Of a DNA stretch of 64,000 bases, positions 11,495-49,027 are shown one piece after another (within the stretch, counting starts at the first letter, position 1; each line of letters begins with the position of its first letter). The stretch comes from Spirochaetia bacterium (GTDB taxonomy: Bacteria; Spirochaetota; Spirochaetia; CAKZLE01): contig JAIPFY010000004.1 of the NCBI GenBank assembly GCA_021736385.1, forward strand, positions 6,112 through 70,111. Direction: 5' to 3'. The translations under genes and the position numbers were made by a program. The notes beneath the pieces are model-generated. The model was not told the origin of the DNA and did no database searches. It worked only from the letters and a program-made list of their open reading frames with translations.

Positions 11495-11530
11495 TATTCT
11501 ATAAATACTTAACTTGAATCATGTAAAGTA

Positions 11531-11559: not shown

Positions 11560-11646
11560 AGGATGAGCAGCCACAAATGTCAAGTTTTAATTTTGCACAT
11601 GTACAATGGGGGGAACTCATGTATACTGTATTCAGGAGAAGAGGGG

Positions 11647-12663
11647 ATGGTGAAAACGACTCGCAACGATGTTGCCCGACTGGCTGAGGTGTCACCTGCG
11701 ACTGTATCGCATGTCATAAACAATACGAAACCGGTCTCTGAGGATCTCCGTATACGTGTGGAACAGGCTATTGAGACCCTGAACTATATACCCAACAGCA
11801 TTGCACGCAGTATGAAGACGAACAGATCGATGCAGGTCGGTCTGGTACTGAGCAACATGGAGAACCCGATCTATGCCGAGTTCGTCAAAGGGTTCGAAGC
11901 AACAGCAGCTCTATACGCATATACGGTGAATATCTGTACGGGGTATGAGGACACGCGGGAGTATTTCAATAAGATCATTCTGAATCGTTGGGACGGTGTT
12001 CTCATAGAGCCTCTGCCTCGACAGCTGAAGACCGGCATCATCGAGCAGCTGCTCGATAAGCAGATCAAAGTGGTGCTGTATAATGATACAGGATTCAGAG
12101 ATCCCAGATGTTCGTTTCTCCGGAATGACTATCTCGGTGGTGTACAGGATACTATGGATCATCTGCTCTCTCTGGGGCATCGTGCGATCGCGTATGTGAC
12201 CGGACTCTCTCCAGATGTCGGCAGCAGTGAAGCCCGTTATGCCGCATATGAACGTATCTGTGCTGAGCGGCAGCTGACTCCGATCATCATCCAGTCCCCT
12301 GAGGCAACAGCCATGACGCTCAGATCCGGATATGAGATGGGTCCTCAGGTATTCGCACAGCTGGAGACCTTCACCGCCTGTATCTGTACCAATGACCTGC
12401 TGGCCATGGGTATTGCCACCTATCTGAAAGAGCAGCAGGTGCAGATCCCCCGGGACATCTCCATCGCCGGCATCGATGATAATATCTACTGTGATTATTT
12501 TACTCCAAGACTGACTTCGATCCATGTTGATAACTATGAGATGGGTTCGCTGGCTTTCAACATCCTCTATCATGATATCCAGCATCACAGCGCTCAGGAT
12601 AGGCTCATACCCATGAAACTCGTCATCAGAGAGTCAACAGCACAGAAGAGGGATACACTATGA
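11647..12663 (+). CDS. LacI family transcriptional regulator
   Basis: N-terminal HTH (NDVARLAEVSPATVSHVIN) and periplasmic-binding-fold effector domain. ATG at 11647 chosen over the longer ORF start. Stop overlaps the GH43 start (ATGA). Confidence 0.85.
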   Translation: MVKTTRNDVARLAEVSPATVSHVINNTKPVSEDLRIRVEQAIETLNYIPNSIARSMKTNRSMQVGLVLSNMENPIYAEFVKGFEATAALYAYTVNICTGYEDTREYFNKIILNRWDGVLIEPLPRQLKTGIIEQLLDKQIKVVLYNDTGFRDPRCSFLRNDYLGGVQDTMDHLLSLGHRAIAYVTGLSPDVGSSEARYAAYERICAERQLTPIIIQSPEATAMTLRSGYEMGPQVFAQLETFTACICTNDLLAMGIATYLKEQQVQIPRDISIAGIDDNIYCDYFTPRLTSIHVDNYEMGSLAFNILYHDIQHHSAQDRLIPMKLVIRESTAQKRDTL

Positions 12664-20474: not shown

Positions 20475-20489
20475 TTCGTGAGGGACTAT

Positions 20490-24329: not shown

Positions 24330-25745
24330 ATGAACAAATATATCGCTGTAGACCTCGGGGCATCGAACGGCAGGGTGATCGTCGGTGACCTCGAGCACTT
24401 CGAAGTAACCAACAGGTTCGTCACGAAGAACGAGCTGGTGAACGGACGGGTGTACTGGGACATCATTGGTATCTTCTCAGAGATCAAGAAGGGGATCAAG
24501 AGTGCCTTCTCCCTCTACGGGGACCAGATCGTCTCCATAGGGATCGATACCTGGGGAGTCGATTTCGGCCTGCTGGATGAAGCAGGTGAACTGCTTGGCA
24601 ATCCCTACCACTACCGGGATAACCGGACAGACGGTATGATGGAACACGTCTTCTCCCTGATCCCGAAAGAGCAGATCTATCAGGCGACCGGCATCCAGTT
24701 CATGCAGCTCAACACCATCTACCAGCTGGCTGCACTGAAGAAGGACCATCCTCAGCTGCTCGCAGCTGCCAGGCACTATCTATCGATCCCCGACCTGCTG
24801 TGCTACTGGCTGACCGGGGTGATGAAGAACGAGTACTCCCATGCCACCACCACCCAGCTCTATGATCCGAACAGCGGGGATTGGGCCTGGGAGATCATTG
24901 ATGCCCTGGGACTCGATCGTGGCCTCTTCGGACAGATCGTCCCCAGCGGGACGGTACTCGGACCCCTTTCAGCAGAGGTCGCGAAAGAACTCCATGCCCC
25001 TGAAGGGGTGACCGTCATAGCCTCGGGCAGCCATGACACAGCCTCTGCTGTGGCTGCAGTGCCGGTTCTCTCAGATGAACAGTACCTCTACCTCTCAAGC
25101 GGTACCTGGTCGCTGCTCGGTATAGAGAGTGATCATCCGATCATCTCGGAGAAGACCCTTGCCTATAACTTCACCAACGAGGGAGCTGCGAGCGGCAAGA
25201 TCAGGTTCCTGAAGAACATCATGGGCATGTGGATCCAGCAGGAGTGCATACGGTGGTGGGAAGCAGGCGGAGAGGAGATCTCGTGGAAGGTCCTTGATCA
25301 GCAGACCCTTGCTGAAGCTGATTTCCCCTCATTCATCGATCCCAATGATCCCCGTTTCCTCAAACCCAACACATCTTCATCATCCATGCCTGACCGGATA
25401 TGCAGTTACTGCAGAGAGCAGGGGATGAGCGAGCCGGAGAATCACGGGCAGTTCATGACTGCGATCTATCGCGGTCTGGCGAAAGCCTATGCCTTCTACC
25501 TGCAGCAGATCCAGGAGCTTACCGGCATACAGTTCGACCGCCTCTATATCATAGGAGGGGGGAGTAAGAACGCCATCCTGAACCAGTGGACGGCAGAAGA
25601 GGCGAAGATCAGGGTCTCATCAGGTCCTGTGGAGGCCACAGCCTTGGGGAACATCCTGATCCAGGCCCTTGCCTGCGGTGATATCCCGGACCGAAGTGCC
25701 GGCAGACAGATCATACGGACCTCTCAGGAGATCATTGACTACTGA
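24330..25745 (+). CDS. rhaB: Rhamnulokinase (FGGY carbohydrate kinase)
   Basis: N-terminus YIAVDLGASNGRVIVG matches the RhaB start. FGGY N- and C-domains. Located in the rha cluster. Confidence 0.75.
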   Translation: MNKYIAVDLGASNGRVIVGDLEHFEVTNRFVTKNELVNGRVYWDIIGIFSEIKKGIKSAFSLYGDQIVSIGIDTWGVDFGLLDEAGELLGNPYHYRDNRTDGMMEHVFSLIPKEQIYQATGIQFMQLNTIYQLAALKKDHPQLLAAARHYLSIPDLLCYWLTGVMKNEYSHATTTQLYDPNSGDWAWEIIDALGLDRGLFGQIVPSGTVLGPLSAEVAKELHAPEGVTVIASGSHDTASAVAAVPVLSDEQYLYLSSGTWSLLGIESDHPIISEKTLAYNFTNEGAASGKIRFLKNIMGMWIQQECIRWWEAGGEEISWKVLDQQTLAEADFPSFIDPNDPRFLKPNTSSSSMPDRICSYCREQGMSEPENHGQFMTAIYRGLAKAYAFYLQQIQELTGIQFDRLYIIGGGSKNAILNQWTAEEAKIRVSSGPVEATALGNILIQALACGDIPDRSAGRQIIRTSQEIIDY

Positions 25746-26649
25746 TCGGGCGGTTGATCCTGTCACGGTATGCCTTCTTGTATTCCCGTGGACTTGCCTG
25801 CATGATCCGGCGGAACTGCCGTGAGAAGTAGTTGCTGTCAGAGAAGCCGGTCAGTTCGGAGATCCTGGTGATCGAGTATCCTGTCGTCCTCAACAGGCGG
25901 CAGGACCGCTCGATACGCAGCCGCAGCTGGTACTCGATCGGTGAACAGCCTGCGGCTTTATGAAAGGCCCTGTTGAGACTGCTGTGCGACATATGAGCGA
26001 TCGAGCACAGCTCATCGATCGTCACTGTGCGGTCACTGTTCTGCTCGATGCAGGTGAAGGCACCTGCCAGGCGCATGATCATGCTTGAATCAGGGATCTC
26101 TGTCTGCGTGTATCGTCGTGAGAGGTATACGACGATCTCGATGAAATAGGCCAGAGCAAGAGCTTTGTTACCGCTCCCGTGATGCTGCCGATCGAGTTCT
26201 TCCTTGACCATGTCTATGCGTTCGATCATATAGGTAAGATCTGCAGAACCGAGCCTCAGTCTGCTGTTGAACTCATGAGAGTCGCGGTATCGGGGTTCGA
26301 TGTTGAAGATCGCATGGTATCCCGGCATCTCCTTGATGTCAAAGAACATCTGGCTGAGCAGCTTCTTGTCGAAGATGATATTATAGAGCTGCAGATCCTT
26401 CGTATCACGGTACCCGTGGGCATAGCCTGCTTCGATGACGAACACATCACCGGGAAAGACCTGGTACTCTGCGCTGCAGGAGAAATGGATGCCGGTCCCG
26501 CTGGTCACGATGACCAGTTCATGAAAATCATGCGTATGCAGCGGATAGGGGACCTGAGGTTTTCTCTCAAGGAGCCTGAGATGAAAATCATCCTCGGAGA
26601 AGAAGGTGTAGGATGATAGATGCGTTGACTGGTTTTCGGAATCAAACAT
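25732..26649 (-). CDS. AraC family transcriptional regulator (RhaS/RhaR-like; cupin sensor + HTH)
   Basis: N-terminal cupin (HTHDFHELVIV). C-terminal AraC-type dual HTH. Divergent from rhaA. Confidence 0.8.
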   Translation of the reverse strand: MFDSENQSTHLSSYTFFSEDDFHLRLLERKPQVPYPLHTHDFHELVIVTSGTGIHFSCSAEYQVFPGDVFVIEAGYAHGYRDTKDLQLYNIIFDKKLLSQMFFDIKEMPGYHAIFNIEPRYRDSHEFNSRLRLGSADLTYMIERIDMVKEELDRQHHGSGNKALALAYFIEIVVYLSRRYTQTEIPDSSMIMRLAGAFTCIEQNSDRTVTIDELCSIAHMSHSSLNRAFHKAAGCSPIEYQLRLRIERSCRLLRTTGYSITRISELTGFSDSNYFSRQFRRIMQASPREYKKAYRDRINRPISSQ

Positions 26650-26742
26650 GACAGAATAGTGCTAGTAAATGAGACGATAGTCAAGGCATGCAGACGAATA
26701 TGGCAGTACTATAGATGATAAGAGCATAAGAAGGAGTAATAC

Positions 26743-28011
26743 ATGAACACATTTGAAGATACGGGAGCATACCGATGGGCACAAGAGGCCTATGCTGCTC
26801 TGGGAGTTGACACAGAGGCCGCCATAGCACGACTGCAGACGATCCCCATCTCGCTGCACTGCTGGCAGGGCGATGACGTAGGCGGATTCGAGACCCCCGG
26901 AGCCACCCTCTCCGGTGGAGGGATCCAGGTCACCGGGAACTATCCCGGGAAAGCCCGTTCGATCAAAGAACTGCAGGCTGATATCGAGAAGGTCTATACC
27001 ATCATCCCGGGGGTCCACCGGCTGAACCTGCATGCGAGCTATGGTGAGTTCGGGGATACGTTCGTCGATCGCGATCAGATCGAGATCGAACATTTCACCG
27101 TCTGGGTCGAGTGGGCAAAGCGACTGGGGATCGGAGTCGATTTCAACGCCACCTGCTTCTCCCACCCCAAGGCCGAGGACGGTTTCACCCTTGCGAGCAA
27201 AGATCCCGAGATCCGGGCTTTCTGGATCGAACATGTCAAACGGGCGCGTAAGATCGCTGCCCATTTCGGTAAGGAACTCGGTACACCTTCGGTGCACAAC
27301 ACCTGGATACCCGATGGTTCCAAAGACCTTACCATCGACAAGACCGGGTATCGCGAACTGCTCAAAGAAGCGCTCGATGAGATCTTTGCGGTGGAGTACC
27401 CGAAAGCATATCTCAAAGATGCTGTGGAGACCAAGCTCTTCGGTATCGGCAGTGAATCCTTTGTCGTCGGTTCCCATGAGTTCTATATGAACTATGCGAT
27501 CAGAAACGACAAGATGGTCTGTCTGGACCTCGGACACTTCCACCCGACCGAGCAGATCGCTGATAAGATCTCCGCGATGATGGTCTTCTCCGATGAGATG
27601 CTGCTGCATGTGAGCCGGCCGATGCGCTGGGACAGTGATCACGTGGTGATCCTCAATGATGATATCATCTATCTGACACAGGAACTGGTACGATGCGGAA
27701 AACTCGATCAGATCCATATCGGACTTGACTTCTTCGATGCCACGATCAACCGGGCAGGTGCCTGGGTCACCGGAGCACGTGCTACGCAGAAAGGGCTGCT
27801 GATGGCCCTGCTCGAGCCGACAGGATTGCTCAAGGAATATGAGGAGTCGGGGAACCTCTATGCTCGGCTCGGACTGCTCGAACAGCTCAAGAGCATGCCC
27901 TTCGGTATCATCTGGGATGAGTTCTGTGCACGAGAAGGGGTCTGCAGGGAATCAGAGGTCATCCAGGAGGTGCTGACCTATGAGCAGCAGGTCCTGAAGG
28001 AGCGTACCTGA
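26743..28011 (+). CDS. rhaA: L-rhamnose isomerase
   Basis: LQTIPISLHCWQGDDVGGFE matches the conserved RhaA N-terminal region (E. coli LPVSMHCWQGDDVSGFE). 422 aa. Confidence 0.9.
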   Translation: MNTFEDTGAYRWAQEAYAALGVDTEAAIARLQTIPISLHCWQGDDVGGFETPGATLSGGGIQVTGNYPGKARSIKELQADIEKVYTIIPGVHRLNLHASYGEFGDTFVDRDQIEIEHFTVWVEWAKRLGIGVDFNATCFSHPKAEDGFTLASKDPEIRAFWIEHVKRARKIAAHFGKELGTPSVHNTWIPDGSKDLTIDKTGYRELLKEALDEIFAVEYPKAYLKDAVETKLFGIGSESFVVGSHEFYMNYAIRNDKMVCLDLGHFHPTEQIADKISAMMVFSDEMLLHVSRPMRWDSDHVVILNDDIIYLTQELVRCGKLDQIHIGLDFFDATINRAGAWVTGARATQKGLLMALLEPTGLLKEYEESGNLYARLGLLEQLKSMPFGIIWDEFCAREGVCRESEVIQEVLTYEQQVLKERT

Positions 28012-29117
28012 TGGATATCGCAGACCTGATCGAGGTATCAAGGCGGTACGGAGCTGATGAACAGATGGTCCTGGCAGGAGGGGGGAATACCTCCAAGAAG
28101 CTGGGAGGAGAGATGTATGTGAAGGCTTCCGGTCACATGCTTGCAGATATCGATGCTTCCGGGTTCGTGAAGATGGACCTGTCAGCACTTGAGCAGATCT
28201 GGGACAAAGAGTACCCTGAAGATACTGATGAACGTGAGAATCAAGTCCTCGCCGACATGATGGAGGCACGGTTCGCCGGTGAGCAGGCACGACCGAGTGT
28301 CGAAGCGCTGCTGCACAGTCTCCTGAAACCGGTCTATGTGGTACACCTGCATCCTGGTCTGGTCAACGGTGTGACCTGTGCACAGGACGGTGAGGAGACG
28401 GTACACCGGCTCTTCGGGGACGATGCTGTCTGGATCCCGCTGGTGAACCCCGGTTATATCCTGGCAAAGACTGTCAGGGATGCCATCAGGGAGCACGAAG
28501 GGCGAACCGGAGTCTACCCTGCCAGTATCTTCCTGCAGAACCACGGCGTGTTCGTGAGCGCTGATACCCTGGATGAGATCGACAGGAACTATGACAGGAT
28601 CATGAGCACCCTCACAGCAGCACTCAAGAGAACCCCTCAGATGGCTCCTGTGGCTGTGGATCCGAAACGGAAGGAGCTGATCACAGAGGCTCTGCAAACC
28701 TATGCCGGTTCAGAACAGGCATGCCATGTGCTGATGAACGAGGAGCTGACCTCACGGCTGCAGGATGAAGAGTCCTTCTATCCGCTCAGTTCAGCCTTCA
28801 CCCCCGATCATATCGTCTACAGCGGATTCAAACCGCTGTGGATCGACCATACTGTCTTCAGCGAGGAGGACCCGGTCGCGGCGGTGGCGGCACGATGCAG
28901 GGCGTATGAAAAAGCATACGGAGTAGCCCCCAAGTGTCTTGCTGTACAGAATACCGGTATCTTCGCCTTGGAAGAACGTGCTGTCATCCTCTTTCAGGAT
29001 ACCGTGAAGGTAGCAGCCTACACTGAGTCCTTCGGTGGAGCACGATTCATGGATGATGATCAGATCAGTTTCATCAGGAACTGGGAAGTAGAGAAATATA
29101 GAGCTAAAGTCTCCTGA
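28011..29117 (+). CDS. Stand-alone RhaE-type rhamnulose-1-phosphate aldolase domain protein (class II aldolase-like; homolog of the N-terminal half of RhaEW/YuxG)
   Basis: GGGNTSKK and QNHGVFV motifs. One-nucleotide overlap TGATG with rhaA. No SDR half attached. Confidence 0.6.
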   Translation: MDIADLIEVSRRYGADEQMVLAGGGNTSKKLGGEMYVKASGHMLADIDASGFVKMDLSALEQIWDKEYPEDTDERENQVLADMMEARFAGEQARPSVEALLHSLLKPVYVVHLHPGLVNGVTCAQDGEETVHRLFGDDAVWIPLVNPGYILAKTVRDAIREHEGRTGVYPASIFLQNHGVFVSADTLDEIDRNYDRIMSTLTAALKRTPQMAPVAVDPKRKELITEALQTYAGSEQACHVLMNEELTSRLQDEESFYPLSSAFTPDHIVYSGFKPLWIDHTVFSEEDPVAAVAARCRAYEKAYGVAPKCLAVQNTGIFALEERAVILFQDTVKVAAYTESFGGARFMDDDQISFIRNWEVEKYRAKVS

Positions 29118-37030: not shown

Positions 37031-37059
37031 GGTGATACGGTATTCCCGTATGCTATAAT
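37031..37059 (+). promoter_or_regulatory. Promoter with extended -10 (TGCTATAAT), overlapped by inverted repeat ATACGG-5-CCGTAT, upstream of the LTD/CotH genes
   Basis: TGnTATAAT at 37051-37059. Weak -35 GTGATA. Inverted repeat at 37035-37051. Confidence 0.5.
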
Positions 37060-37086: not shown

Positions 37087-38034
37087 ATGAAAAAGTATAT
37101 AAGTATTGCTGGTGTGATCATGGCAGCCCTCAGTATCGCCGCAGCTGAACCTGCTGCAGCACGTCCTGAGATGATCGTGATCAATGAAGCGGCCTCGACC
37201 GGTGCGTATGATTTTGTCGAGCTGAGGAATCTCGGTTCCGAGGATGCCATCTTCGATGGCTCATGGTCCCTCATCGATGATCTCGAGGGCTCTGCCGACG
37301 GCGATAAGCCGGCGGTGATCCCTGCAGGGACCGTGATCCCTGCGAACGGGTACCTCCTCCTGGCCCCGTATAAAGTGCAGCTGCTCTCATCGAAGGTCCC
37401 GAAAGACCTCCCTGAAGCTGCCATACCACTGAGATCCTTTGCCCTCGGTTCCCAAGATAGCGTCACGCTGCTTCAGGGGATGCAGATCGTAGACCGGTTC
37501 TCCTGGGATACGGCGATCAACAGCTATGGGAGATCTCCTGTTGACAGCAATACGCTCACTGATCTGCTCATACCCACCCCCGGTACTGAAAACAGACAGG
37601 AGATCTATCATACCGGAGAGCTTCCGGTGAAGATCAATGAAGTCTGCTCGAAAGGACTCGATTACATCGAGCTCTTCAATACCTCAGACCGTGACTATCA
37701 GCTGGAGCCCGGAAGCTGGGAACTCCATGATACAGGACGCAACGATGTGTTCCGCTTCCCTGAAGCGGCAGTGATACCTGCACAGGGATTCCTGACCATC
37801 TATCCCGATCTGGTCCGATTGCCCCTCTCTGCACGGAAGAACAGTTATGCCTCCACTGCAGGGAACCGTTTCGGTCTGGGAGAGAGTGACAGGGTCTTTC
37901 TGAAGTATGATGGGAAGATCGTTGATACGATCGGATGGAGACTTCATGCGGCAAGTACGGGGAGATTGCCCGACGGTGGTGATCTCTGGGTGGCAGATCT
38001 CTTTCTGACCCCCGGACGAACGAACAGGAAATGA
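37087..38034 (+). CDS. Secreted protein with two lamin-tail domains (LTD)
   Basis: Signal peptide. Two repeats of the LTD signature (IVINEAASTGAYDFVELRN... and VKINEVCSKGLDYIELFN...), each followed by the G-x-W beta-strand region. Confidence 0.7.
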   Translation: MKKYISIAGVIMAALSIAAAEPAAARPEMIVINEAASTGAYDFVELRNLGSEDAIFDGSWSLIDDLEGSADGDKPAVIPAGTVIPANGYLLLAPYKVQLLSSKVPKDLPEAAIPLRSFALGSQDSVTLLQGMQIVDRFSWDTAINSYGRSPVDSNTLTDLLIPTPGTENRQEIYHTGELPVKINEVCSKGLDYIELFNTSDRDYQLEPGSWELHDTGRNDVFRFPEAAVIPAQGFLTIYPDLVRLPLSARKNSYASTAGNRFGLGESDRVFLKYDGKIVDTIGWRLHAASTGRLPDGGDLWVADLFLTPGRTNRK

Positions 38035-38047
38035 CAGGAGACAGAGC

Positions 38048-40684
38048 ATGAGAGGACGAACGACAGGTACGGCTGTCCTGCTGTCAGTGATACTGATCCT
38101 TGCAGCGGGATGTACGACAGAGCCTTCGCAGCAGGCGTATGAGCAGCTGCTTGCCGAGCGGAATCAGCAGTTCGCCCAGGCGAAGCTGCAGCCGGGACAG
38201 CAGCTGATCATCAATGAGGTCTCCCTGTGGAATACCACGGAACTTCAGGCGGATGACGGCACGTTCCCCCAGTGGATCGAACTACGCAACGTGACCGAAG
38301 AAGATCTACAGCTCGAGGGCTGGCGTATCGTGGTGACCGACCGGGACGGCACGGTCACCCGCTTCCTGCCGTTTCCCTCCCTGACCATGGAAGCCGGCTC
38401 GATCAGGCTCCTTGCGTTCGTACCGCAGGCTTCGAGGCTCCCTGTCTCTGCGATCAGGTTCACTGAAGCGCTGCCTGTGACCACTGCAGCGGTCGAACTG
38501 GTCGATGCGCAGCAGGTGACCGTTGACCGGTTCCTGATCGAGGAGACCGAAGTCAGTTCCTGGGAAGATCCCCCCCCGCGTGATATCTCCTATGCCCGTG
38601 AAGCCGACCACGGCCGCCTGATCCGAAGGAGCACCTCACCCAGTCCCGGTATGGACAACGAGCTGGGAATCCCGACCCCTGTGTTCACAGTCTCTTCAGG
38701 TTTCTATGATTCACTTGCACTGGAGTTCTCGACAGAGGACCTTCCGGCAGACTATGAGATCCGGTATACGATCAACGACGGGTATACCCGTGGAGAGGAC
38801 ATCTATGACACCCGGAAGCTGTGGAAGTACCCGACGCAGCACGAGGGACAGCTCTATACAGGACCGGTACCGCTGGATGCGACTGCTGTGGTGAAGGCAC
38901 GGGTCTATACCCCTACGGGGGCCTGCAGCCGCATGATCGTACGGACCTATCTCATCGATGAATCCACTGAACTGCCCATCTGGTCTCTGACTGCTGATCC
39001 TGCTGATCTCTGGAGTGCCGAGTATGGCATCTATACTGCCGCGGAGAGCACTGATGAGCCGAACTTTACCAAGAAAGGCTTCAGGATGGTGCATACGGAG
39101 TTCTTTGACCATGACCGGCAGCAGAGTCCCTCGTTCTCCGATACCTATCTCATGAGGATCTTCGGGAACTCCTCCAGATACTTCCTGAGCAAGTCGCTTG
39201 CACTCTATGCGAAGGCACCCGCATCACAGAAGCGGATCCCCAACCGGTTCTTCACCGGATCTGCTGCCCATATCGATGAGCTCTATGCTGTGGTATTGAG
39301 AACCTCGGGAGGGGACTATGAACGGGCGATGATCCGAGACGGACTGATGACCGGGCTCGCTACGGATCATGGGTTGGAGAAACAGGATATACGACCCTCT
39401 GTGGTGTTCCTCAACGGACAGTACTGGGGGATCCTGAACATACGCGAGAAGGTCAATGAGTACTTTCTCGAAGACCATGCAGGGATCGACCCTGACGTGG
39501 TCGATCTCATTGAGGGATCCTACTTTGATGAGATGGTAGCCAGCGAAGGATCGATGGCGGCTGTCACCGAGCTCTATGAGTACATCACCAGTGCCGATGC
39601 CTCGTACGATGTCCTCTATGATCGGTTCGCTGAGATGGTCGATATCGAGAACTTCATCGACTACATCATCTTTCAGACGTTCATCAATAATACTGACTGG
39701 CCGTGGAGCAACATGAAGATGTGGCGACCTCAGACACCGGAAGGGAAATGGCGATTCATCTTCTATGATACCGATGCCGGGTTCGATACCACCGAGTATT
39801 TCACTCAGAGCTTCCCTGACCCCGAGCGATTCCCGAAAGGGCGTGCTGATCATGATATGCTCCACTATCTTGCGACCGATTTACGTTCCGATGTGATCAG
39901 CAGACTCTTCAAGTCCCTGATCCGCAACCGGCGGTTCTATGATCAGTTCATCACCCGCTACACGGAACTGCTCGATACCCATCTCACCCCTGCATACCTG
40001 ACTGCTGAAGTGTCCAGACATGCTGCTGTGATCGCACAGGAGATCCCCAGACACGCGCAGCGGTGGTCGATCCTGGATACGTATAAGGACAACCAGTACT
40101 ATTTCTCGCAGGAGGCCTGGGAGCAGGAACTCTCTGTGCTCTATGAGTTCGCCCGTGAACGGACTGCCCATGTGAGAGAACATCTGGCCGCTTTTGCTGT
40201 GGAGCATGAACCGGTCGAGCAGCTACGGATCGCCAATGGTGACTTCGAGGGAGAGGATTTGAGCATGTGGAATCTGCGCTGGTCAGAAGAGAATGTACGA
40301 TCAGAAGTGGTGAAGGACGGTGATGGACATGTGGGATCCATACAGATCATCAAGGGTATGACCTACCCGTGGGATTCGGTATCCTTCGTCTATGACAACA
40401 TATTCCTCGAAGAGCAGACTGAGATCGAGTTCGCCTTCGATATGAGAAGCAGCAGCCGCCTCTCGAGCGGTGAATATGTCAGGGTGGTCCTCTTTCAGGC
40501 AGATACCAACGAACGGGTCTTCTCTCTGGATGTCGTGCCATCTCTCGAGTGGGAGCGGGAGAAGATCAGAGTCCGGTATACCGGTCCTCTGATGTTCAAT
40601 GGTCGCCTGCAGTTTCGCGTCGGTACGCTCAAAGAGGGGCGTGAGATCCTCATCGATTCGATTACCATGACGATAGTGGAGTAG
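38048..40684 (+). CDS. Lipoprotein: LTD - CotH atypical protein kinase domain - CBM4/9-like C-terminal domain
   Basis: Lipobox LAAGC. N-terminal LTD (LIINEVSLWNT...WIELRNVTEEDLQLEGWRIV). Central region with CotH-family hallmarks (FGNSSRYFLSKSLALYAK, NNTDWPWSNMKMWRP, YDTDAGFD). C-terminal NGDFEGEDLSMWN... beta-sandwich. AGGAGA RBS. Confidence 0.75.
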   Translation: MRGRTTGTAVLLSVILILAAGCTTEPSQQAYEQLLAERNQQFAQAKLQPGQQLIINEVSLWNTTELQADDGTFPQWIELRNVTEEDLQLEGWRIVVTDRDGTVTRFLPFPSLTMEAGSIRLLAFVPQASRLPVSAIRFTEALPVTTAAVELVDAQQVTVDRFLIEETEVSSWEDPPPRDISYAREADHGRLIRRSTSPSPGMDNELGIPTPVFTVSSGFYDSLALEFSTEDLPADYEIRYTINDGYTRGEDIYDTRKLWKYPTQHEGQLYTGPVPLDATAVVKARVYTPTGACSRMIVRTYLIDESTELPIWSLTADPADLWSAEYGIYTAAESTDEPNFTKKGFRMVHTEFFDHDRQQSPSFSDTYLMRIFGNSSRYFLSKSLALYAKAPASQKRIPNRFFTGSAAHIDELYAVVLRTSGGDYERAMIRDGLMTGLATDHGLEKQDIRPSVVFLNGQYWGILNIREKVNEYFLEDHAGIDPDVVDLIEGSYFDEMVASEGSMAAVTELYEYITSADASYDVLYDRFAEMVDIENFIDYIIFQTFINNTDWPWSNMKMWRPQTPEGKWRFIFYDTDAGFDTTEYFTQSFPDPERFPKGRADHDMLHYLATDLRSDVISRLFKSLIRNRRFYDQFITRYTELLDTHLTPAYLTAEVSRHAAVIAQEIPRHAQRWSILDTYKDNQYYFSQEAWEQELSVLYEFARERTAHVREHLAAFAVEHEPVEQLRIANGDFEGEDLSMWNLRWSEENVRSEVVKDGDGHVGSIQIIKGMTYPWDSVSFVYDNIFLEEQTEIEFAFDMRSSSRLSSGEYVRVVLFQADTNERVFSLDVVPSLEWEREKIRVRYTGPLMFNGRLQFRVGTLKEGREILIDSITMTIVE

Positions 40685-40688
40685 TGAT

Positions 40689-41624
40689 ATGAAACAGACG
40701 ATCCTGATCCTGGCTCTGATGAGCATGATTCTTGGCTGCACGACTGCACCTCCTGCAGTCTCGGACCGGGAACCGGTAGAGGCCGTGCCTGCCTTCATCG
40801 TGATCAACGAGGCCGCCTCGGAGGGCGACTTTGAGTTCATAGAACTCTTTGCCATCACCCCCCACCCGGTGATCTTCTCATCCGGCTGGAGCCTGATCGA
40901 TAATGCGAACAACTTCAGTGAAGGGGAGAAGGCCTTCATCATCCCTGAGGGGACAGTCATCCCGGCCTACGGGTATCTGCTGATCTGTCCGTTCACCGAG
41001 GCCAGGGCCAAGGACGTCCTCAACGATCCCGATGTTCCCGCCGATGCCCTCTGTGACATCTCCTTCTCTCTGGGTTCCAACGATTCGGTATCCCTGTACT
41101 ACGATTCACTGCTGGTTGACAGCCTCTCGTGGGAACATGATGTGAACTCGATCGGCAGGGTGACCGATGGTCTTGCGGAGATCTCAGATGAGCTGGTACC
41201 GACCCCCGGGATGCAGAACAGGACTGAACCTGTCGCACGGGGATCGTTCCCGATACGGATCAATGAGATCAACTCCAGAGGTGATGACTATGTCGAGCTG
41301 TACAATAGCGGTGACACACCATTCTCGTTCACCGAAGGTGATTGGGTCATCGAAGATATCAGAAAGGACCGGGACTATGAGATCCCGGGATCATTGGAGA
41401 TCCCGGCAGAAGGGTATGTGCTGCTGCGAACAGGGCATGATGACTTCTCAGTGAAGTTCGGCAGCTCTGACAGTGTCATCCTCAGATACAAAGATCGTAT
41501 CTTCGACAGCTATCGCTGGGGTGAGCATGTGAACTCTCATGGCCGGTATCCTGATGGGGCTGATCAGTGGGGTCCCATGGAGATGAGTCCGGGAGAGGAG
41601 AATCTCCCGGTCACAGCTGATTAA
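40689..41624 (+). CDS. Lipoprotein with two lamin-tail domains (LTD)
   Basis: Lipobox ILGC. Two LTD signatures (FIVINEAASEGDFEFIELF and IRINEINSRGDDYVELYNSG). 5 bp after the CotH gene. Confidence 0.7.
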   Translation: MKQTILILALMSMILGCTTAPPAVSDREPVEAVPAFIVINEAASEGDFEFIELFAITPHPVIFSSGWSLIDNANNFSEGEKAFIIPEGTVIPAYGYLLICPFTEARAKDVLNDPDVPADALCDISFSLGSNDSVSLYYDSLLVDSLSWEHDVNSIGRVTDGLAEISDELVPTPGMQNRTEPVARGSFPIRINEINSRGDDYVELYNSGDTPFSFTEGDWVIEDIRKDRDYEIPGSLEIPAEGYVLLRTGHDDFSVKFGSSDSVILRYKDRIFDSYRWGEHVNSHGRYPDGADQWGPMEMSPGEENLPVTAD

Positions 41625-42232
41625 CTCTCCTGAAAGTCAGACAGGAAGCTGGGATACCGTTTTGCATCGTAGAGGATCTCCAGCATGGCGGTATCTCTCA
41701 GGAAGTTTATCGCCCCAATATGGACATCAAGCACCTCGATGCCCAGTCGCTTCTCAAGGTCTTCGATCAGAGCCGGTCTGTTCTCTGGTCTGATCAACTC
41801 GATCTTCTCATACCGTACCGTCAGAATACTCTTGGAGCGTCGGAACCAGAGCAGCTCAAGGATCGCAGTGATCAGCAGGATCACCGTATTGACTCCGAGG
41901 ATGATCAGGGCACTGTACCCGGCTGCGGTCAGGGAGTTGATCACCGATACGGTGATAGCCAGGAACATGTAGGTCATCTCCCGGATCTGTACGGTCGTGG
42001 TACGGTAGCGCAGGATCCCGAAGATCGCAAAGAGACCCAGAGCGAGACCGAGTTCGAGATTGATACTCGAGAGCAGATAACAGAGAAAGAATACGGCGAC
42101 ACCTATGATATTGGACGTGAAGACATACTCCTTCTTACGGGACCCGGTATAGTAGAGAAACCGGGTGATGAGTATGAGCATCACGGTGTTGATCAGAAAA
42201 CGCACAGCAAGATCAAATAGGGGACTGTTCAT
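41621..42232 (-). CDS. DUF4956-family small membrane protein
   Basis: 203 aa, four hydrophobic helices plus a C-terminal soluble tail. AAAGAGG RBS. Overlaps the upstream VTC gene by 20 bp. This family typically neighbours VTC-domain genes. Confidence 0.6.
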   Translation of the reverse strand: MNSPLFDLAVRFLINTVMLILITRFLYYTGSRKKEYVFTSNIIGVAVFFLCYLLSSINLELGLALGLFAIFGILRYRTTTVQIREMTYMFLAITVSVINSLTAAGYSALIILGVNTVILLITAILELLWFRRSKSILTVRYEKIELIRPENRPALIEDLEKRLGIEVLDVHIGAINFLRDTAMLEILYDAKRYPSFLSDFQES

Positions 42233-43055
42233 GTGATAACCTCTTTATCAGGAGTTGTTTGCTTTTGAAGCTGTTGTATTTCAGGCTGGGATCCAGCTCG
42301 ATCATGCCGATACAGTATTTGCTGAAGCCCGAAGGTTGGATCCCGAGATCATGCAGGATCCGTGCAAAGGTCAGTCTCGGGACAGCCCCTTCATGCTTGA
42401 TCTCTGCGATGACCAGCCTCTCGGGCCGATTCGTATGTTCAGCAGATGAGAAGACCAGTGAAGTATCTATGGTGATTCGCTCAGCCCCTGACAGATGCAC
42501 CAGGGTGACCCGGTTGAATTCGAGGGACAGGGCCTTCATGAGCGACTGGGGGTCGTAGGGCAGGATCGGTCCTGCGAAGTCGATGATCGTCTCAAGGAGC
42601 CTGCTGTCAGATAGCAACTCATCGAGATCGCTGGTATCAGCAAGCCTGAGACGATGTTTTCTGGTCTTCCCCTTGAACTTCTCTTTTATCTCTGCAAATA
42701 CCAGATCGAATCCCCGGTATTCCCTGAGTCGCAGTTTGTATCGGTGCTCCTTACCGTTGTGATGTGAGAGGAACATATCGTACGAGGGGGTATCGAAATA
42801 GGCCGTGTAGTAGGGGAACAGCTGCATTCCCCCTTCGGTGGTGACCCTGTACTCATGAGCACAGGCTGCGAGTATCTCAGGCAGGCGATGTGATGAGAAG
42901 ACATACTTGGTATCGAACCGGTTGAGCAGTCCCACTTCTGTGGTCTCTTTGAGGCTGATCGGGTCGAACCGGCTAAGCAGTTCATCCATTGCAGAGAGTG
43001 GGTTCTGATGCTGTCGGGACGGTGAAGCTGTCATGAGGTAAGTATACCCTACCAT
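42213..43055 (-). CDS. VTC-domain protein (polyphosphate polymerase-like / CYTH-like domain of vacuolar transporter chaperone)
   Basis: 280 aa. Sequence features (TKYVF, Y..AYFDT, HRYKLRLREY, basic tunnel residues) match the VTC/PF09359-type fold as I recall it. Start codon uncertain (43055 or 43034). Confidence 0.55.
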   Translation of the reverse strand: MVGYTYLMTASPSRQHQNPLSAMDELLSRFDPISLKETTEVGLLNRFDTKYVFSSHRLPEILAACAHEYRVTTEGGMQLFPYYTAYFDTPSYDMFLSHHNGKEHRYKLRLREYRGFDLVFAEIKEKFKGKTRKHRLRLADTSDLDELLSDSRLLETIIDFAGPILPYDPQSLMKALSLEFNRVTLVHLSGAERITIDTSLVFSSAEHTNRPERLVIAEIKHEGAVPRLTFARILHDLGIQPSGFSKYCIGMIELDPSLKYNSFKSKQLLIKRLSHEQSPI

Positions 43056-43174: not shown

Positions 43175-43507
43175 ATGAGAGGATTCGGACAGGGAATGTT
43201 TGGTAGAGGCCGGGGCGGCGGACGAGGACGTGGACATGGACCGAAAGGATGCTCTGATGGTGAATGCTGTGCAAGACGCCGTCGGGCTCTGCATGGGATG
43301 ACACCCGGTGAGAGTGCCATAATCACCGAACTGCCCTGCCAGGGGAAACATCGGAAACGATTGATATCATTGGGGATGCTGCCCGGGACACGAGTGACCT
43401 GCGTACGGACCAACGGCAAGTCAGGTCTCTGTGTCAGGATCGATAGAAGTGAGTTCTGCATAGACAGCTCTCTGGCTGAGCAGATACAAGTTGGGGGATC
43501 GATATGA
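43175..43507 (+). CDS. feoA: FeoA-domain protein with Gly/Arg-rich, Cys-containing N-terminal extension
   Basis: C-terminal SH3-like FeoA domain (GESAIITELP...RLISLGMLPGTRV). N-terminal 40 aa GRGRGGGRGRGHGPKGCSDGECCARRRR. GAGGTG RBS supports the long start. Confidence 0.7.
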   Translation: MRGFGQGMFGRGRGGGRGRGHGPKGCSDGECCARRRRALHGMTPGESAIITELPCQGKHRKRLISLGMLPGTRVTCVRTNGKSGLCVRIDRSEFCIDSSLAEQIQVGGSI

Positions 43508-43749
43508 GTGACGTGATGGGATTGAAGCAGATGAGCAAAGGTGATAAGGCTATCCTGACAGGGTTCTCTGAGAACGGGAGTGCCTATCGAAGGAAACTGT
43601 TGTCGATGGGGCTGACCCGGGGGGTGGAGATCGAGTTCGTCCAGGCAGCCCCGATGGGTGACCCGATAGAGATCAAGGTCCGGGGCTATGCCCTGAGCCT
43701 GAGGAGAGCAGAAGCAGAAGTGCTTCAGCTCAGGGGAGTGGACAGATGA
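43504..43749 (+). CDS. feoA: FeoA-domain protein (second copy)
   Basis: 81 aa FeoA fold. ATGA overlap with both neighbours. Confidence 0.8.
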   Translation: MSDVMGLKQMSKGDKAILTGFSENGSAYRRKLLSMGLTRGVEIEFVQAAPMGDPIEIKVRGYALSLRRAEAEVLQLRGVDR

Positions 43750-46043
43750 ACAGCAAAGCTCACCCCTCGATCGCGATCGCGGGGAATCCGAACTGTGGGA
43801 AGACCACCATCTTCAATGCCCTCACCGGTAGTGATCAGCGGGTAGGGAACTGGCCCGGGGTCACCGTTGAGAAGAAGTCGGGCAAGTTCACCTTCCCCCA
43901 TGTCTCAGGAGAGGTCATAGACCTTCCGGGGATCTATTCACTGAGTCCTGACTCGGAAGATGAGATCGTGGCACGAAGATTCCTGGCATCAGCGGAGTAT
44001 GATGTGGTGATCAATGTGATCGATGCCTCCAACCTGGTGAGGAATCTCTATCTGACGACACAGCTTCGTGAGATGGATATTCCCATGATCATCGTGATCA
44101 ATAAGCAGGACCTTGCCGCAAAACATGGGCTGAACATCGATGCGGAGAAGATGAGCAAGGGCCTTGGAGCTCCGGTCATCTCGATCAGTGCCGTCGATGA
44201 ACATGACATCGCACGTCTGAAGAAGGGATTGAGCCGGTATCTTGTGCAGGATACGCTCATCAACACCCCGTTCAGTGTCTCCTACGGGGAAGCTATAGAG
44301 CGGTTCATCGCAAGCGGGATCGTATCGAACGATGCCCTCGGCGCATTGGGACGGATGGGGCAGCGAAGTGCATCGATCGCACTGCTCGAGGATGATCCCA
44401 TCGTCATCGAGATGATCTGCTCGAGTGGTGTCTCGAAGGATGAGATCCTTCAGCGGCGAGAAGAGGTCTATAAAGCGGTCGGAGATGATCTGGATATCAT
44501 CCTGGCAGAACGGCGCTATGCCGCTATCGATGCACTTGAGCATACCGCCTCCTCTGAGACCTCAGGGAAGAAGGGCTTCGATCTTGACAGGATCGTCATG
44601 CATCGATACCTGGGAGTCCCGGTATTCTTCGCCATGATGTATCTGGTCTTCATGGTCACCATGACCCTCGGTGGAGCCTTCATCGACTTCTTCGATATCC
44701 TCTTCGGTGCCTTCTTCGTTGACGGGTTCGGGGCGCTCCTCTCCCTCATCCAGGCTCCTGAGTGGGTGATCACCTTCTTAGCTGGTGGTGTCGGCGGTGG
44801 TATCCAGACGATCGCGACCTTCATACCTATCATCTTCTTCATGTTCCTGATGCTCGGTATCCTGGAAGATTCCGGGTATATGGCACGGGCTGCCTTTGTC
44901 ATGGACCGCTTCATGCGGTTCGTCGGGCTTCCCGGTAAAGCGTTCGTACCCATGCTGGTAGGCTTCGGATGTACCGTCCCTGCGATCATGGCGACCAGGA
45001 CGCTGGATTCGAAACGGGATCGGTTCCTCGCGATCTTCATGGTACCGTTCATGTCCTGCGGGGCACGACTGCCGGTCTATGCGTTGTTCGCTGCAGCCTT
45101 CTTCAGTACCCATGCGGGACTGGTGGTCTTCTCGATCTACATGGCAGGTATTCTCCTGTCGATCATGACCGGGATGATCCTGAAGAGGACGCTGTTCAAG
45201 GGTGAGTTCTCTCCCTTCATCATGGAACTCCCCGAGTACCATATCCCCAAGCTCAGGAAGGTCATGAAGTATTCCTGGGACCGACTCACGCTGTTCATGT
45301 TCCGTGCAGGGAAGGTGATCATCGTGGTCGTCTGCATCCTGACTCTGCTCGGCAGCTTCGGGACCGATGGATCGTTCGGGAACGAGGATAGCCAGAACTC
45401 GGTACTCGCTGCCATCGGTAAGACGATCACTCCCATCTTCGGACCTATGGGGATCACCGAAGATAACTGGCCGGCAACCGTAGGCCTGTTTACCGGGATC
45501 TTTGCCAAAGAGGCCGTAGTGGGTACCTTGAACAGTCTCTACCTGACATCCGATGGGGGGGTAGAAGAGGATACAGAACCTTTCAGCCTCTCAGGAGAGA
45601 TCCTTGCAGCCTTCAGCTCCATCGGTGAGAACCTCGCAGGTATCGCAGGAGGACTGGCTGATCCCCTGGGACTCGGCATCCTCGGTGCAGAAGAGCAGGA
45701 GACAGCCGAAGAGGTCGGTGCTGATTCACAGCTCTTCGGTATCCTCAGAGCGATGTTCACCCCTGCAGCAGCCTATGCCTATCTGCTGTTCATCCTGATC
45801 TACTTCCCCTGTGTCGCTGCCCTCGGTGCGGTCTTCAGAGAGGCCGGCAGATTCTACGGGATCCTGCTTGCCTCCTACCTGACGATCCTTGCCTGGGTGG
45901 TATCGGTCTTCGTCTATCAGGTTGCCGAGGGGCATTCTCCCCTCTGGATCACGGTCTCTGTGGGGATCAGTGCGCTGATCTACCTGAGTCTGATCCTCCT
46001 CGGAAAGCGTGAAGACAAGATGGAAGCAGCCCTGTTCCTCTAG
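43746..46043 (+). CDS. feoB: Ferrous iron transporter FeoB (G-domain + membrane permease)
   Basis: G1 motif GNPNCGKTT. NKQD. Long polytopic C-terminal domain with two gate motifs. 765 aa. Confidence 0.95.
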   Translation: MNSKAHPSIAIAGNPNCGKTTIFNALTGSDQRVGNWPGVTVEKKSGKFTFPHVSGEVIDLPGIYSLSPDSEDEIVARRFLASAEYDVVINVIDASNLVRNLYLTTQLREMDIPMIIVINKQDLAAKHGLNIDAEKMSKGLGAPVISISAVDEHDIARLKKGLSRYLVQDTLINTPFSVSYGEAIERFIASGIVSNDALGALGRMGQRSASIALLEDDPIVIEMICSSGVSKDEILQRREEVYKAVGDDLDIILAERRYAAIDALEHTASSETSGKKGFDLDRIVMHRYLGVPVFFAMMYLVFMVTMTLGGAFIDFFDILFGAFFVDGFGALLSLIQAPEWVITFLAGGVGGGIQTIATFIPIIFFMFLMLGILEDSGYMARAAFVMDRFMRFVGLPGKAFVPMLVGFGCTVPAIMATRTLDSKRDRFLAIFMVPFMSCGARLPVYALFAAAFFSTHAGLVVFSIYMAGILLSIMTGMILKRTLFKGEFSPFIMELPEYHIPKLRKVMKYSWDRLTLFMFRAGKVIIVVVCILTLLGSFGTDGSFGNEDSQNSVLAAIGKTITPIFGPMGITEDNWPATVGLFTGIFAKEAVVGTLNSLYLTSDGGVEEDTEPFSLSGEILAAFSSIGENLAGIAGGLADPLGLGILGAEEQETAEEVGADSQLFGILRAMFTPAAAYAYLLFILIYFPCVAALGAVFREAGRFYGILLASYLTILAWVVSVFVYQVAEGHSPLWITVSVGISALIYLSLILLGKREDKMEAALFL

Positions 46044-46076
46044 GGAAGGGGGCAGATTCTCAACGAACATCAAGCG

Positions 46077-46139
46077 GTCTGCTCGTGCTGAGATCCCGGA
46101 TCAACGGTTCAGCACCGGCAGACCGTCCTTTCTTCTCGA
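46077..46139 (+). terminator. Long hairpin (outer 8-bp plus inner 7-bp stems) followed by a T-rich tract; feoB terminator
   Basis: CGGTCTGC...GCAGACCG with inner GTGCTGA/TCAGCAC, then TCCTTTCTTCT. Confidence 0.6.
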
Positions 46140-46170
46140 TTAGTTCTCAGGAGTATGATAAGGTATCTAT

Positions 46171-46872
46171 ATGAACGTGAATGAATTGGCTAAACGCTAT
46201 CCGACAGCCTCCGAATATATATCACAGATCTATCTCATCTTGCGAGATTATACCTACTGCAATAACCGCCGCCTTGCCGATCATATCGGGGTCTCACCAT
46301 CTGCAGTCTCACAGGCGGTGGGTCGTCTCAAACGGCTCGATATCGCAGAGCAGGACAAGTACGGGATGATCATGCTCAGAGAGACCGGGGTCATCCTCGC
46401 CGAGCAGATCCTCAGAAGGCACTACCTGCTTGAACATCTGATGGTCAGGAAACTGCACTTCCCCTGGGATCTCGCTGACAAGGAGGCCGAACATCTGCAG
46501 GACAAGGTCTCTGATGACTTCACTGACCATCTCGAGCAGGAGCTCGGACATCCCAGAGTATGTCCTCATGGGAATCCCTTTCCCTGTAATCCTGATGCAC
46601 CTGAGATCCTCAGTGCCCCGAGGCTCATCGACTGCACCGAAGGTGAGCATATCGAGATCGTGCGTATCACCGAAGAGGGGGAGCGGGTAGAGGGACTGCT
46701 GCATCTGTGCTATCTGGAAGGGGTAGTCCCGGGTACTACCTACCGCATCACCCGGATGCTGACCGAGGAGCTCGAGTTGGCTGAAGATACCACAGGACGT
46801 CTGATCGTCCTTCCCCGCAGCTATGGTGAACACCTGCGTGTGAAGTCTGTGGCTCCTGCACTCACAGCCTGA
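46171..46872 (+). CDS. DtxR/MntR-family metal-dependent transcriptional repressor with C-terminal SH3-like (FeoA-like) domain
   Basis: wHTH. Metal-binding region (HLEQELGHPRVCPHGNPFP). C-terminal SH3-like domain. Adjacent to the feo operon. Confidence 0.8.
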   Translation: MNVNELAKRYPTASEYISQIYLILRDYTYCNNRRLADHIGVSPSAVSQAVGRLKRLDIAEQDKYGMIMLRETGVILAEQILRRHYLLEHLMVRKLHFPWDLADKEAEHLQDKVSDDFTDHLEQELGHPRVCPHGNPFPCNPDAPEILSAPRLIDCTEGEHIEIVRITEEGERVEGLLHLCYLEGVVPGTTYRITRMLTEELELAEDTTGRLIVLPRSYGEHLRVKSVAPALTA

Positions 46873-47467: not shown

Positions 47468-47713
47468 ACAAATGAGGCTTCGTGCCTCATAATGACCCAT
47501 TCATGGTCACGAAACCTTCATCTGCCTGATATTTTTCCCGTGAGTGTTCATAATCTCCCGAGCAGATACTGTATATGTGAGATTGTTGTGTGTTTGTACG
47601 ATAGGTAGTGTTTGATAGTTATAGTTACCAAAATATTGAAAACTTAACTTAAATAGCTTCCATATATTCGTAAACTATTTGACTTGTTGGATGATTGGGC
47701 ATATCATACAGAT

Positions 47714-49027
47714 ATGAATGATATATTGCGCCTGATTATCGCGCAGCAACAGCAAAGATTGAAAAGCAGTTTCCCGATTGTATCTCGGGATACAGAGATC
47801 CTCCCGGTCCCAAGAAAAGCCACTATTATCATTGGAATCAGACGGAGCGGGAAGTCCACGTGGCAGCATGAAAAAATGGGATCGCTCTTGGATGAGGGTG
47901 TAGCTCATGAGAACATCTGCTATATTGATTTCTCTGATGATCGTCTCGAATTCCTCAGACTTGTAGACTCGGACCCCGCAGTGATCACAGATACTTACTA
48001 TGGGATGTATCCCCAAAAGCACGATCAGAAGGTGTACTTCTTCTTTGATGAATTGCAGTATGTCAACAGGTGGGCTCAGCTGGTTAACAGATTACAGGTC
48101 ACAGAATCCTGTGAGATCTATATCACCGGATCATCAGCTAAACTCCTTTCTAAGGAGATAGCAACGGAGTTGGGAGGAAGGTCGTTCACCTGGGAGATGT
48201 TCCCATTCTCATTCCGTGAATTTTTACGAGCGAACGGGAAACCGCAAGCCATCACTGATATTGCAAGCAGAGATGCAATCATCAGCGCATTTGGTGCATA
48301 TGTAGAGTTGGGAGGAATGCCGGAGCGGTTGGTGCTCCCCAAGGACGCGATGGCTCCCATCTATTTCCAGAACCTGGTCAACGATGTAATCACCCGTGAT
48401 ATGCTACTCAGGTATAATATGCAACACCCAGTTCAGTTGAAACGACTCGTTCATATCCTGATGAACAGTTATTCCCGACTCATCACGGTAAATAAGCTCA
48501 AACAGCGTCTTGCCGGAGAGCGAAACAAACTTTCCCCAGAATTGATCAGTGACTATATTGATAAGCTCATTGACTGCTATCTGATATGTACAATTCCTAT
48601 CCGCTCATACAATATGGCTGTTCAGGCTGTGAACCCAAAGAAAGTTTACTGTGTTGATCATGCGCTGGTTCAGGCTTTTTCTCGAGCTACATCTGAAAAT
48701 AATGGATTTGTATTGGAGAACATGGTGTTCATTGCGCTCAGGCGCTCCACCGAACATATATACTACTACAAGACTGCACTTGGTGATGAGATTGATTTTG
48801 CCGTTGGTCCAGATACTGATATCAAACTGATTCAAGTTTGCTGGGAAATGAGTAGGGAGAGCCGCACAAGAGAACGGGAACTGAAACCTCTTATTGATGG
48901 CATGGAAGAACTTGGACTTCAAGAGTCATGGATAATTACCGCGTACGAAGAAGAGGAATTCGAAGATGAGAAGACAGGTAGAACCATCCATCTTGTGCCC
49001 GCCTATTCTTGGTTATTACACAGGTAA
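47714..49027 (+). CDS. AAA ATPase of the AAA_14/DUF4143 family
   Basis: Walker A GIRRSGKST. Walker B FFFDELQ. C-terminal DUF4143-like region. Noticeably lower GC than flanks. Preceded by an AT-rich promoter region. Alternative TTG start at 47684. Confidence 0.75.
   Translation: MNDILRLIIAQQQQRLKSSFPIVSRDTEILPVPRKATIIIGIRRSGKSTWQHEKMGSLLDEGVAHENICYIDFSDDRLEFLRLVDSDPAVITDTYYGMYPQKHDQKVYFFFDELQYVNRWAQLVNRLQVTESCEIYITGSSAKLLSKEIATELGGRSFTWEMFPFSFREFLRANGKPQAITDIASRDAIISAFGAYVELGGMPERLVLPKDAMAPIYFQNLVNDVITRDMLLRYNMQHPVQLKRLVHILMNSYSRLITVNKLKQRLAGERNKLSPELISDYIDKLIDCYLICTIPIRSYNMAVQAVNPKKVYCVDHALVQAFSRATSENNGFVLENMVFIALRRSTEHIYYYKTALGDEIDFAVGPDTDIKLIQVCWEMSRESRTRERELKPLIDGMEELGLQESWIITAYEEEEFEDEKTGRTIHLVPAYSWLLHR

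Follow-up and report, generated by a model that had tools for sequence, protein, structure and literature searches.

The stretch of DNA analysed here, hereafter the window, comprises 64 kb of contig JAIPFY010000004.1 from the metagenome-assembled genome (MAG) of a Spirochaetia bacterium, and the element considered is a gene on its forward strand, at 38048..40684, which encodes a protein of the CotH kinase family. The gene is a single open reading frame (ORF) of 878 amino acids (aa), and its product is identical to the deposited MCF7940344.1, "CotH kinase family protein [Spirochaetia bacterium]". From N- to C-terminus, the protein is made of a lamin-tail domain (LTD), an immunoglobulin (Ig)-like domain, a CotH kinase core and a jelly-roll of the type of the carbohydrate-binding modules (CBM) of families 4 and 9. 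A sequence-only reading of the same DNA had placed a CotH kinase core fused to a C-terminal carbohydrate-binding-like beta-sandwich at 38855..40684. This range is in frame, but it corresponds to the 3′ two-thirds of one gene, beginning at codon 270, within the Ig-like domain; the LTD that the same reading mentioned does exist, outside that range. The features of the gene are as follows.

38048..40684, forward strand: whole gene, predicted CotH-family lipoprotein MCF7940344.1 (ORF and exact NCBI match)
38048..38113, forward strand: predicted signal peptide with lipobox (…LILAAG-C22), read from the translation, most orthologues having a Cys at the aligned position
38195..38542, forward strand: N-terminal LTD, about aa 50-165 (sub-threshold Pfam LTD, PF00932 on orthologues, Foldseek lamin tails)
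38675..38956, forward strand: Ig-like beta domain, about aa 210-303, Fn3_assoc/CHB_HEX_C_1-like (sub-threshold Pfam, strands of high model confidence)
38960..40207, forward strand: CotH atypical kinase core, aa 305-720 (PF08757, profile against 5jd9, model against 5jda and 5jd9)
39695..39712, forward strand: catalytic-loop motif D550-W-P-W-S-N555, aligned to FDGFVHN of Bacillus cereus CotH
39767..39775, forward strand: metal-binding motif D574-T-D576, where YDTD aligns to WDYD of B. cereus CotH
40229..40681, forward strand: CBM_4_9-type beta-jelly-roll, aa 728-878 (Pfam on orthologues, profile, AlphaFold, Foldseek)

The kinase core named in the sequence-only reading is unequivocal at the level of its family, PF08757 matching residues 370-708 with an E value of 1.1e-44 and 153.7 bits against a cut-off of 23.8, over profile positions 2-321 of 322. 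A full-length AlphaFold (AF2) model, with a predicted local distance difference test (pLDDT) of 84 and a predicted template-modelling score (pTM) of 0.76, resembles three kinds of solved structure: the Bacillus CotH structures 5jda and 5jd9 (E ~1e-11, target-normalised template-modelling score, TM, of 0.73-0.74), the CBM4-2 and CBM16 modules, and the lamin A/C tails. The calls of LTD, kinase and jelly-roll are thus structurally supported. At the sequence level, a profile of the orthologues (A1) failed to reach the CotH structures and a broader one (A3), built from 21 diverse CotH cores, was needed; it matches B. cereus CotH (5jd9) with an E value of 2.3e-12, in an alignment that begins past the N-lobe. 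Single-sequence phmmer of the whole protein against the sequences of the Protein Data Bank (PDB) returned nothing, and an NCBIfam scan gave no usable match for it.

All of the 21 diverse cores have N555 and D574, and at least 90% of them keep D550; K382 is invariant among the orthologues. The aligned aspartates of B. cereus CotH are 23 residues apart, which is the spacing of D228 and D251 in Bacillus subtilis CotH, where the mutants D228Q and D251A are inactive (PMC7821199). Through this spacing, and partly by inference, D550 would be the counterpart of D228 and D574 that of D251. The residues aligned with the catalytic and metal-binding aspartates, as well as N555, being conserved, the kinase looks catalytically competent. 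A different conception, in which the CotH core is a pseudokinase or an adhesin and the whole protein a surface adhesin made of binding domains, as proposed for the Mucorales CotH invasins, would suit the multi-domain surface architecture (LTD, Ig-like and CBM-type domains), and fungal CotH proteins are reportedly treated as virulence factors or surface ligands. However, a loss of catalysis would not be expected to leave the Asp and Asn of the catalytic loop and the metal-binding Asp conserved, as they are both here and across the 21 homologues, and this conception is therefore highly improbable.

As for the C-terminal tail, the string NGDFEGEDLSMWN, with which the sequence-only reading had its last 160 residues begin, is found at residues 730-742, but the segment from N730 to E878 amounts to 149 residues. 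In the whole protein, Pfam CBM_4_9 (PF02018) aligns to residues 728-820 with 15.9 bits, the cut-off being 25.9. The family becomes apparent among the relatives. In a set of 17 full-length orthologues, 32-52% identical, whose excised tails form alignment A2, 16 of the tails scanned singly match CBM_4_9 (E up to 1; best E 1.9e-12), and six of the orthologues bear a precomputed PF02018. Furthermore, the tail-family profile matches 4mgq, a CBM of a family 10 glycoside hydrolase (GH10; E 6e-5), and 1gui, the CBM4-2 of Thermotoga Lam16A (E 7e-3); an end motif, L-x-F-x-x-G…I-D-D/N-V/I, is common to the tail and to these solved CBMs. A word-indexed homologue search with the tail profile returned three fragments only and an exhaustive search was used instead, which, over 1.84 billion representatives, gave 625 matches at E up to 1e-3. 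Eight of the 150 matches listed are CotH proteins, of 843-933 aa (clusters at 50% identity). Nine of the top-scoring non-CotH matches were scanned and every one proved to be a strong multi-copy PF02018 surface protein, one of them with GH16 and CBM6, another with a dockerin.

The structural comparisons point in the same direction. Modelled alone, the tail is an all-beta domain of nine strands with a pLDDT of 91.5, and the same strands are present in the full-length model. In Foldseek searches against the PDB, the first rank is occupied by Rhodothermus CBM4-2 variants (2y6j, 4bj0, 3jxs) with E ~3e-9 and TM 0.70-0.72, followed by 1gui, CBM16, the CBM4s of Clostridium thermocellum, CBM22 and CBM61; nearly all of the best 30 are CBM4, CBM16, CBM22 or CBM61, with TM 0.65-0.72. 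The carbohydrate-binding-like beta-sandwich of the sequence-only reading can in this way be placed in the CBM_4_9 sequence superfamily and the CBM4/16/22 jelly-roll fold. Two of the checks that it proposed, a search with hidden Markov models and an AlphaFold model, yielded CBM matches among the orthologues and a CBM-type fold, not the disordered or foreign fold that would have spoken against it.

The tail is nearly as conserved as the remainder of the protein (mean column identity 49% vs 52%). Conservation and strand periodicity together single out nine conserved residues predicted to face outwards: W741, W745, W775, S796, D798, K/R800, R853, Q855 and R857, the last six forming a conserved polar run on two strands. 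These six could be either a ligand cleft or an interface with the kinase. The second of the two strands, that of R853, Q855 and R857, presumably corresponds to the one lining the CBM4 cleft, as in CenC CBM4-1. The CBMs of glycoside hydrolases are usually carried by long flexible linkers; here about 8 residues (aa 720-727) separate the jelly-roll from the last kinase helix (688-719). This short linker, together with the pTM of 0.76, suggests that the module is held against the kinase.

Such a rigid packing has to be considered together with the possibility that the jelly-roll is a protein-binding or structural accessory domain, which would recruit the LTD proteins encoded on either side of the gene or another protein substrate, or else cap the C-lobe. 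Its fold is shared with domains of Cry protoxins, MAM domains, ephrin-receptor ligand-binding domains and phage tailspikes; the best-conserved neighbours of the gene encode LTD proteins, not glycan enzymes; and B. subtilis CotH is known to act on proteins (PMC7821199). Nevertheless, the nearest sequence relatives of the tail are bona fide CBM_4_9 repeats in proteins with GH16, CBM6 or dockerin, its best structural matches are ligand-bound CBM4-2 and CBM16 modules, and the polar run described above is predicted to face outwards. On balance an accessory domain of this kind seems unlikely.

At the other end of the protein, the N-terminus, MRGRTTGTAVLLSVILILAAG-C22, reads by eye as a signal peptide closing in a lipobox, and the protein is probably exported as a lipoprotein. 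The LTD that follows falls below the Pfam cut-off (aa 50-119, 25.2 bits vs 34.3). Orthologues bear a precomputed PF00932, and in Foldseek the corresponding part of the full-length model resembles the lamin A/C tails 3gef and 6ghd (TM 0.64-0.72; 0.72 for 3gef). The Ig-like region is matched by Fn3_assoc and CHB_HEX_C_1 at aa 237-301 with 21 and 16.7 bits, both sub-threshold; it is modelled as beta strands at high pLDDT, and many distant CotH homologues bear precomputed matches to both families.

With respect to its distribution, a scan of 185,579 species genomes gave 79 loci (loci of other genomes are designated below by L numbers), among which the matches reaching through the tail come from Spirochaetia and Spirochaetales MAGs only. 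Those from Ignavibacteriota, Bacteroidota, Marinimicrobia, KSB1, Cloacimonadota and others align mainly to residues ~50-716, that is, to the LTD, Ig-like and CotH regions without the tail. One Spirochaetia MAG (CAKZLE01) harbours three paralogous CotH-CBM genes on different contigs (L008, L010 and L015), and another carries two in tandem (L017, 6143-12580), so that the family has expanded within the clade.

Two near-identical assemblies, SRR3166490 and GCA_002900405.1 (LQAE01000016.1), designated L087 and L088 and matching window 37087..41624 at 97.5% identity, present the CotH gene in fragments, with an ORF of 615 or 404 aa and a separate CBM ORF of 182 aa. The fragmentation stems from 1-nt deletions in short homopolymer runs; since the genes for a Na/H exchanger and for RNase II nearby are broken too, sequencing errors are likelier than pseudogenes, and the idea that the tail is a gene of its own was rejected.

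The genes that adjoin the CotH gene, with a candidate promoter, are listed next.

37032..37059, forward strand: promoter-like site before the LTD-CotH-LTD genes (10 of 12 consensus matches, extended TG), a weak candidate, with 6 such sites vs 4.6 expected by chance
37087..38034, forward strand: upstream secreted double-LTD protein, 315 aa (Pfam LTD E 4e-18, two stretches)
40689..41624, forward strand: downstream double-LTD lipoprotein, 311 aa (Pfam LTD E 1e-18)
41621..42232, reverse strand: DUF4956 membrane protein, 203 aa (PF16316, E 2.9e-47)
42213..43055, reverse strand: VTC-domain (polyphosphate-polymerase-like) protein, 280 aa (PF09359, E 3.9e-23)

The CotH gene stands in the middle of an LTD-CotH-LTD operon which is conserved in one Spirochaetia clade. 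The gaps are of 13 nt from the upstream LTD gene to CotH and of 4 nt from the CotH stop to the downstream one, and the two flanking proteins are paralogues, 37% identical. The order is kept in L001, L004, L005, L006, L008 and L009; the 32%-identical orthologue of L002 retains the downstream neighbour (CotH-LTD), and the paralogue of L007 has neither flanking LTD gene. In L007 (9759-15011), the CotH-CBM gene is followed by a gene for a 1750-aa CARDB-domain protein in place of the LTD gene.

Convergent to this operon lies the DUF4956 gene, the end of which overlaps that of the downstream LTD gene by 4 nt, and the VTC gene in turn overlaps the start of the DUF4956 gene by 20 nt. With phmmer, no PDB sequence came up as a relative of the VTC protein. 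Both families adjoin CotH not only in the window but also in L001 (equal to L014), L008 and L009, from three further spirochaete genomes. Moreover, DUF4956 and CotH are linked in 20 fetched loci besides the window. In 13 non-spirochaete loci VTC, DUF4956 and CotH follow one another in this order, co-directional and contiguous, sometimes with a second CotH (L020, L023, L037, L045, L046, L050, L057, L066, L069, L070, L081, L083 and L085). In L045 (7704-14484) the trio was confirmed by Pfam, and its two CotH proteins carry type IX secretion system (T9SS) sorting domains. The chance of finding VTC within 10 kb was roughly estimated, from the rarity of VTC, at well below 1% per locus, and we infer from this rough figure that the linkage between VTC and CotH looks functional.

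A similar trio has been described in Gram-positive pel operons, the accessory genes of which encode a secreted kinase resembling CotH, a DUF4956 protein and a polyphosphate-polymerase-like protein (PMC7112168). In Streptococcus intermedius, CotH-like and DUF4956-like mutants display less Pel-dependent aggregation, and the arrangement was reported not to be found outside the pel locus (PMC12345266). Pfam scans of 43 ORFs of the window detected neither pel nor any other synthase-type exopolysaccharide gene, and the fetched spirochaete loci with called genes listed contained none either. The window being devoid of pel genes, the trio of CotH, VTC and DUF4956 is not restricted to pel loci.

Altogether, we favour, with a probability of about 0.6, the explanation that the gene encodes an active CotH kinase, exported and anchored by lipid outside the cytoplasm, whose CBM-type module targets or positions it on a polymeric partner, most likely a glycan, and that VTC and DUF4956 belong to the same phosphate pathway. 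The C-terminal module would probably serve in targeting or in positioning the substrate, by keeping the kinase on some polymer of the envelope or the surroundings, most probably a glycan; the anchored enzyme would then phosphorylate a surface or matrix substrate, while the cytoplasmic VTC-like enzyme and the DUF4956 membrane protein would probably take part in the same handling of phosphate.

Several observations weigh against this explanation. The tail scanned alone reaches 20.2 bits, below the CBM_4_9 cut-off of 25.9, and its Foldseek matches include domains that are not deposited as CBMs, from Cry protoxin, phage tailspike, MAM and ephrin-receptor ligand-binding domains. A glycan as its ligand is a prediction from family membership and fold, and the short linker and the pTM of 0.76 suit a rigid accessory domain equally well as a tethering module. 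VTC and DUF4956 are absent beside most orthologues (L002, L004, L005, L006, L007, L010 and L017), and no polysaccharide-synthesis genes were found near the CotH locus. Finally, Bacillus CotH acts in an ATP-containing mother cell; ATP is not expected outside the cytoplasm, which leaves the phosphate donor of an exported kinase unexplained.

This last difficulty would be overcome if the trio constituted an extracytoplasmic phosphorylation system, in which a phosphate polymer or donor produced by the VTC-like enzyme in the cytoplasm would cross the membrane through the DUF4956 protein, to be used by the CotH kinase at the surface on the glycan or envelope polymer presented by the CBM-type module. 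If true, it would explain how a kinase works without ATP around it, but as a complete scheme we regard it as very doubtful.

The nature of the substrate admits a further alternative, namely that the enzyme phosphorylates a glycan and not a protein, the CBM-type module being its substrate-binding site. It could be envisaged from the rigid fusion of that module beside the catalytic domain, from the genetic tie between CotH-like genes and Pel output (PMC12345266), and by analogy with Fam20B, of kinase fold, which phosphorylates a xylose residue (PMC5865150). Conversely, all characterised CotH kinases phosphorylate proteins, CBM_4_9 is absent from most CotH homologues, and glycan-synthesis genes were not found in the window near the locus, so a glycan kinase would be very improbable here.

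The remaining features of the window bear on other matters. Adjoining the VTC gene, at 43175..46872, two FeoA genes and a FeoB gene are followed by one for a DtxR-type iron-dependent repressor, a block that is syntenic in L001 and shows no evident functional connection with the CotH locus. Between 46001 and 50000 the GC content falls from ~0.55 to 0.49, with an AAA_14/DUF4143 ATPase at 47684..49027, and this segment may be a foreign insertion. An ORF of 454 aa at 20478..21842 on the forward strand, between genes of a 2-oxoacid dehydrogenase complex and short-chain dehydrogenase genes, drew no Pfam match at an E threshold of 1e-5. Finally, 6484..14129 and 25732..29117 contain genes for a GH106 rhamnosidase-like enzyme, GH43, a sugar ABC transporter, LacI, rhamnose isomerase, an aldolase and AraC, a saccharolytic set that suggests an organism using plant polysaccharides. 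A link between these sugar-utilisation genes (GH106, GH43, rhamnose catabolism) and CotH was considered and rejected, the distance exceeding 8 kb and the synteny with the locus being absent in other genomes. A defence-system reading was likewise unsupported, PADLOC giving no match and NCBIfam no usable one.

To our knowledge, no secreted bacterial member of the CotH family has a known substrate. The CBM-type tail, which is small, confidently modelled, expressible and ready for glycan arrays, could locate the action of at least one of these orphan kinases. In addition, VTC and DUF4956 genes recur beside CotH in several phyla, and not only at pel loci, which makes the question of how exported CotH kinases get their phosphate donor testable.

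The sequence-only reading had seen in the fusion a new context for a protein kinase. This claim is not supported: CotH kinases are already known in cellulosomes and beside Pel operons, modular homologues exist, and PF02018 labels are present on the orthologues themselves. LysM, F5/8-type C, CHB_HEX_C and dockerin domains are present among the homologues of this analysis, and in one protein (P0054) an unrelated CotH architecture also ends in CBM_4_9. As regards cellulosomes, dockerin-CotH kinases occur in those of bacteria and anaerobic fungi, and plant-cell-wall binding has been speculated for them (PMC6083626, PMC12484212, PMC8665504).

Bacillus CotH (PF08757; 5JD9/5JDA), a kinase of the coat proteins CotB and CotG (PMC7821199), has an atypical core homologous to that of the window protein, and the two align at the Asp and Asn of the catalytic loop and at the metal-binding Asp. 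However, the Bacillus enzyme is a single domain of ~360 aa, whereas the protein described here is a predicted exported lipoprotein of 878 aa, enlarged by three beta domains, from a non-sporulating diderm lineage. The cellulosomal members, such as CseP/Cthe_0044 and Cthe_0239 (LTD-LTD-Fn3-CotH) of C. thermocellum and the fungal dockerin-CotH proteins, resemble the window protein in their LTD or Fn3-type domains and, as secreted CotH kinases, are brought to a polysaccharide-associated machine; there, attachment is made by dockerin to scaffoldin, while the window protein has no dockerin and carries a predicted lipid anchor and a fused CBM_4_9-type module.

The pel accessory genes (Whitfield 2020; SIR_1592-1594) bring together the same three gene families, with a secreted CotH that ends in a C-terminal beta-sandwich (FN3 in that case), and a phenotype dependent on a polysaccharide has been tied to them genetically (PMC7112168, PMC12345266). 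They differ in that the 64-kb window has no pel genes, the VTC-DUF4956 pair is convergent and not co-transcribed with CotH, two LTD genes flank the latter, and the host is a spirochaete. With the CBM4/CBM_4_9 modules of glycoside hydrolases, such as the CBM4-2 of Rhodothermus marinus Xyn10A and of Thermotoga maritima Lam16A, the tail shares the jelly-roll (TM ~0.7), an initial N-G-x-F-E…W motif and a final L-x-F-x-x-G…I-D-D/N motif, but it is borne by a kinase and not by a glycoside hydrolase, on a very short linker and as a copy below the Pfam cut-off. Fam20B, a secretory-pathway enzyme of kinase fold acting on a glycan (PMC5865150), belongs to another kinase family and is cited here as an analogy.

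The fusion of CotH with CBM_4_9 is, therefore, a modest variant of the secreted multi-domain CotH kinases, adding one more targeting module to a family known in outline. What is specific to the clade of the window is the direct, short-linker joining of CotH to a CBM_4_9-type module, within a small group of spirochaetes (eight 50%-identity clusters among the 150 matches listed).

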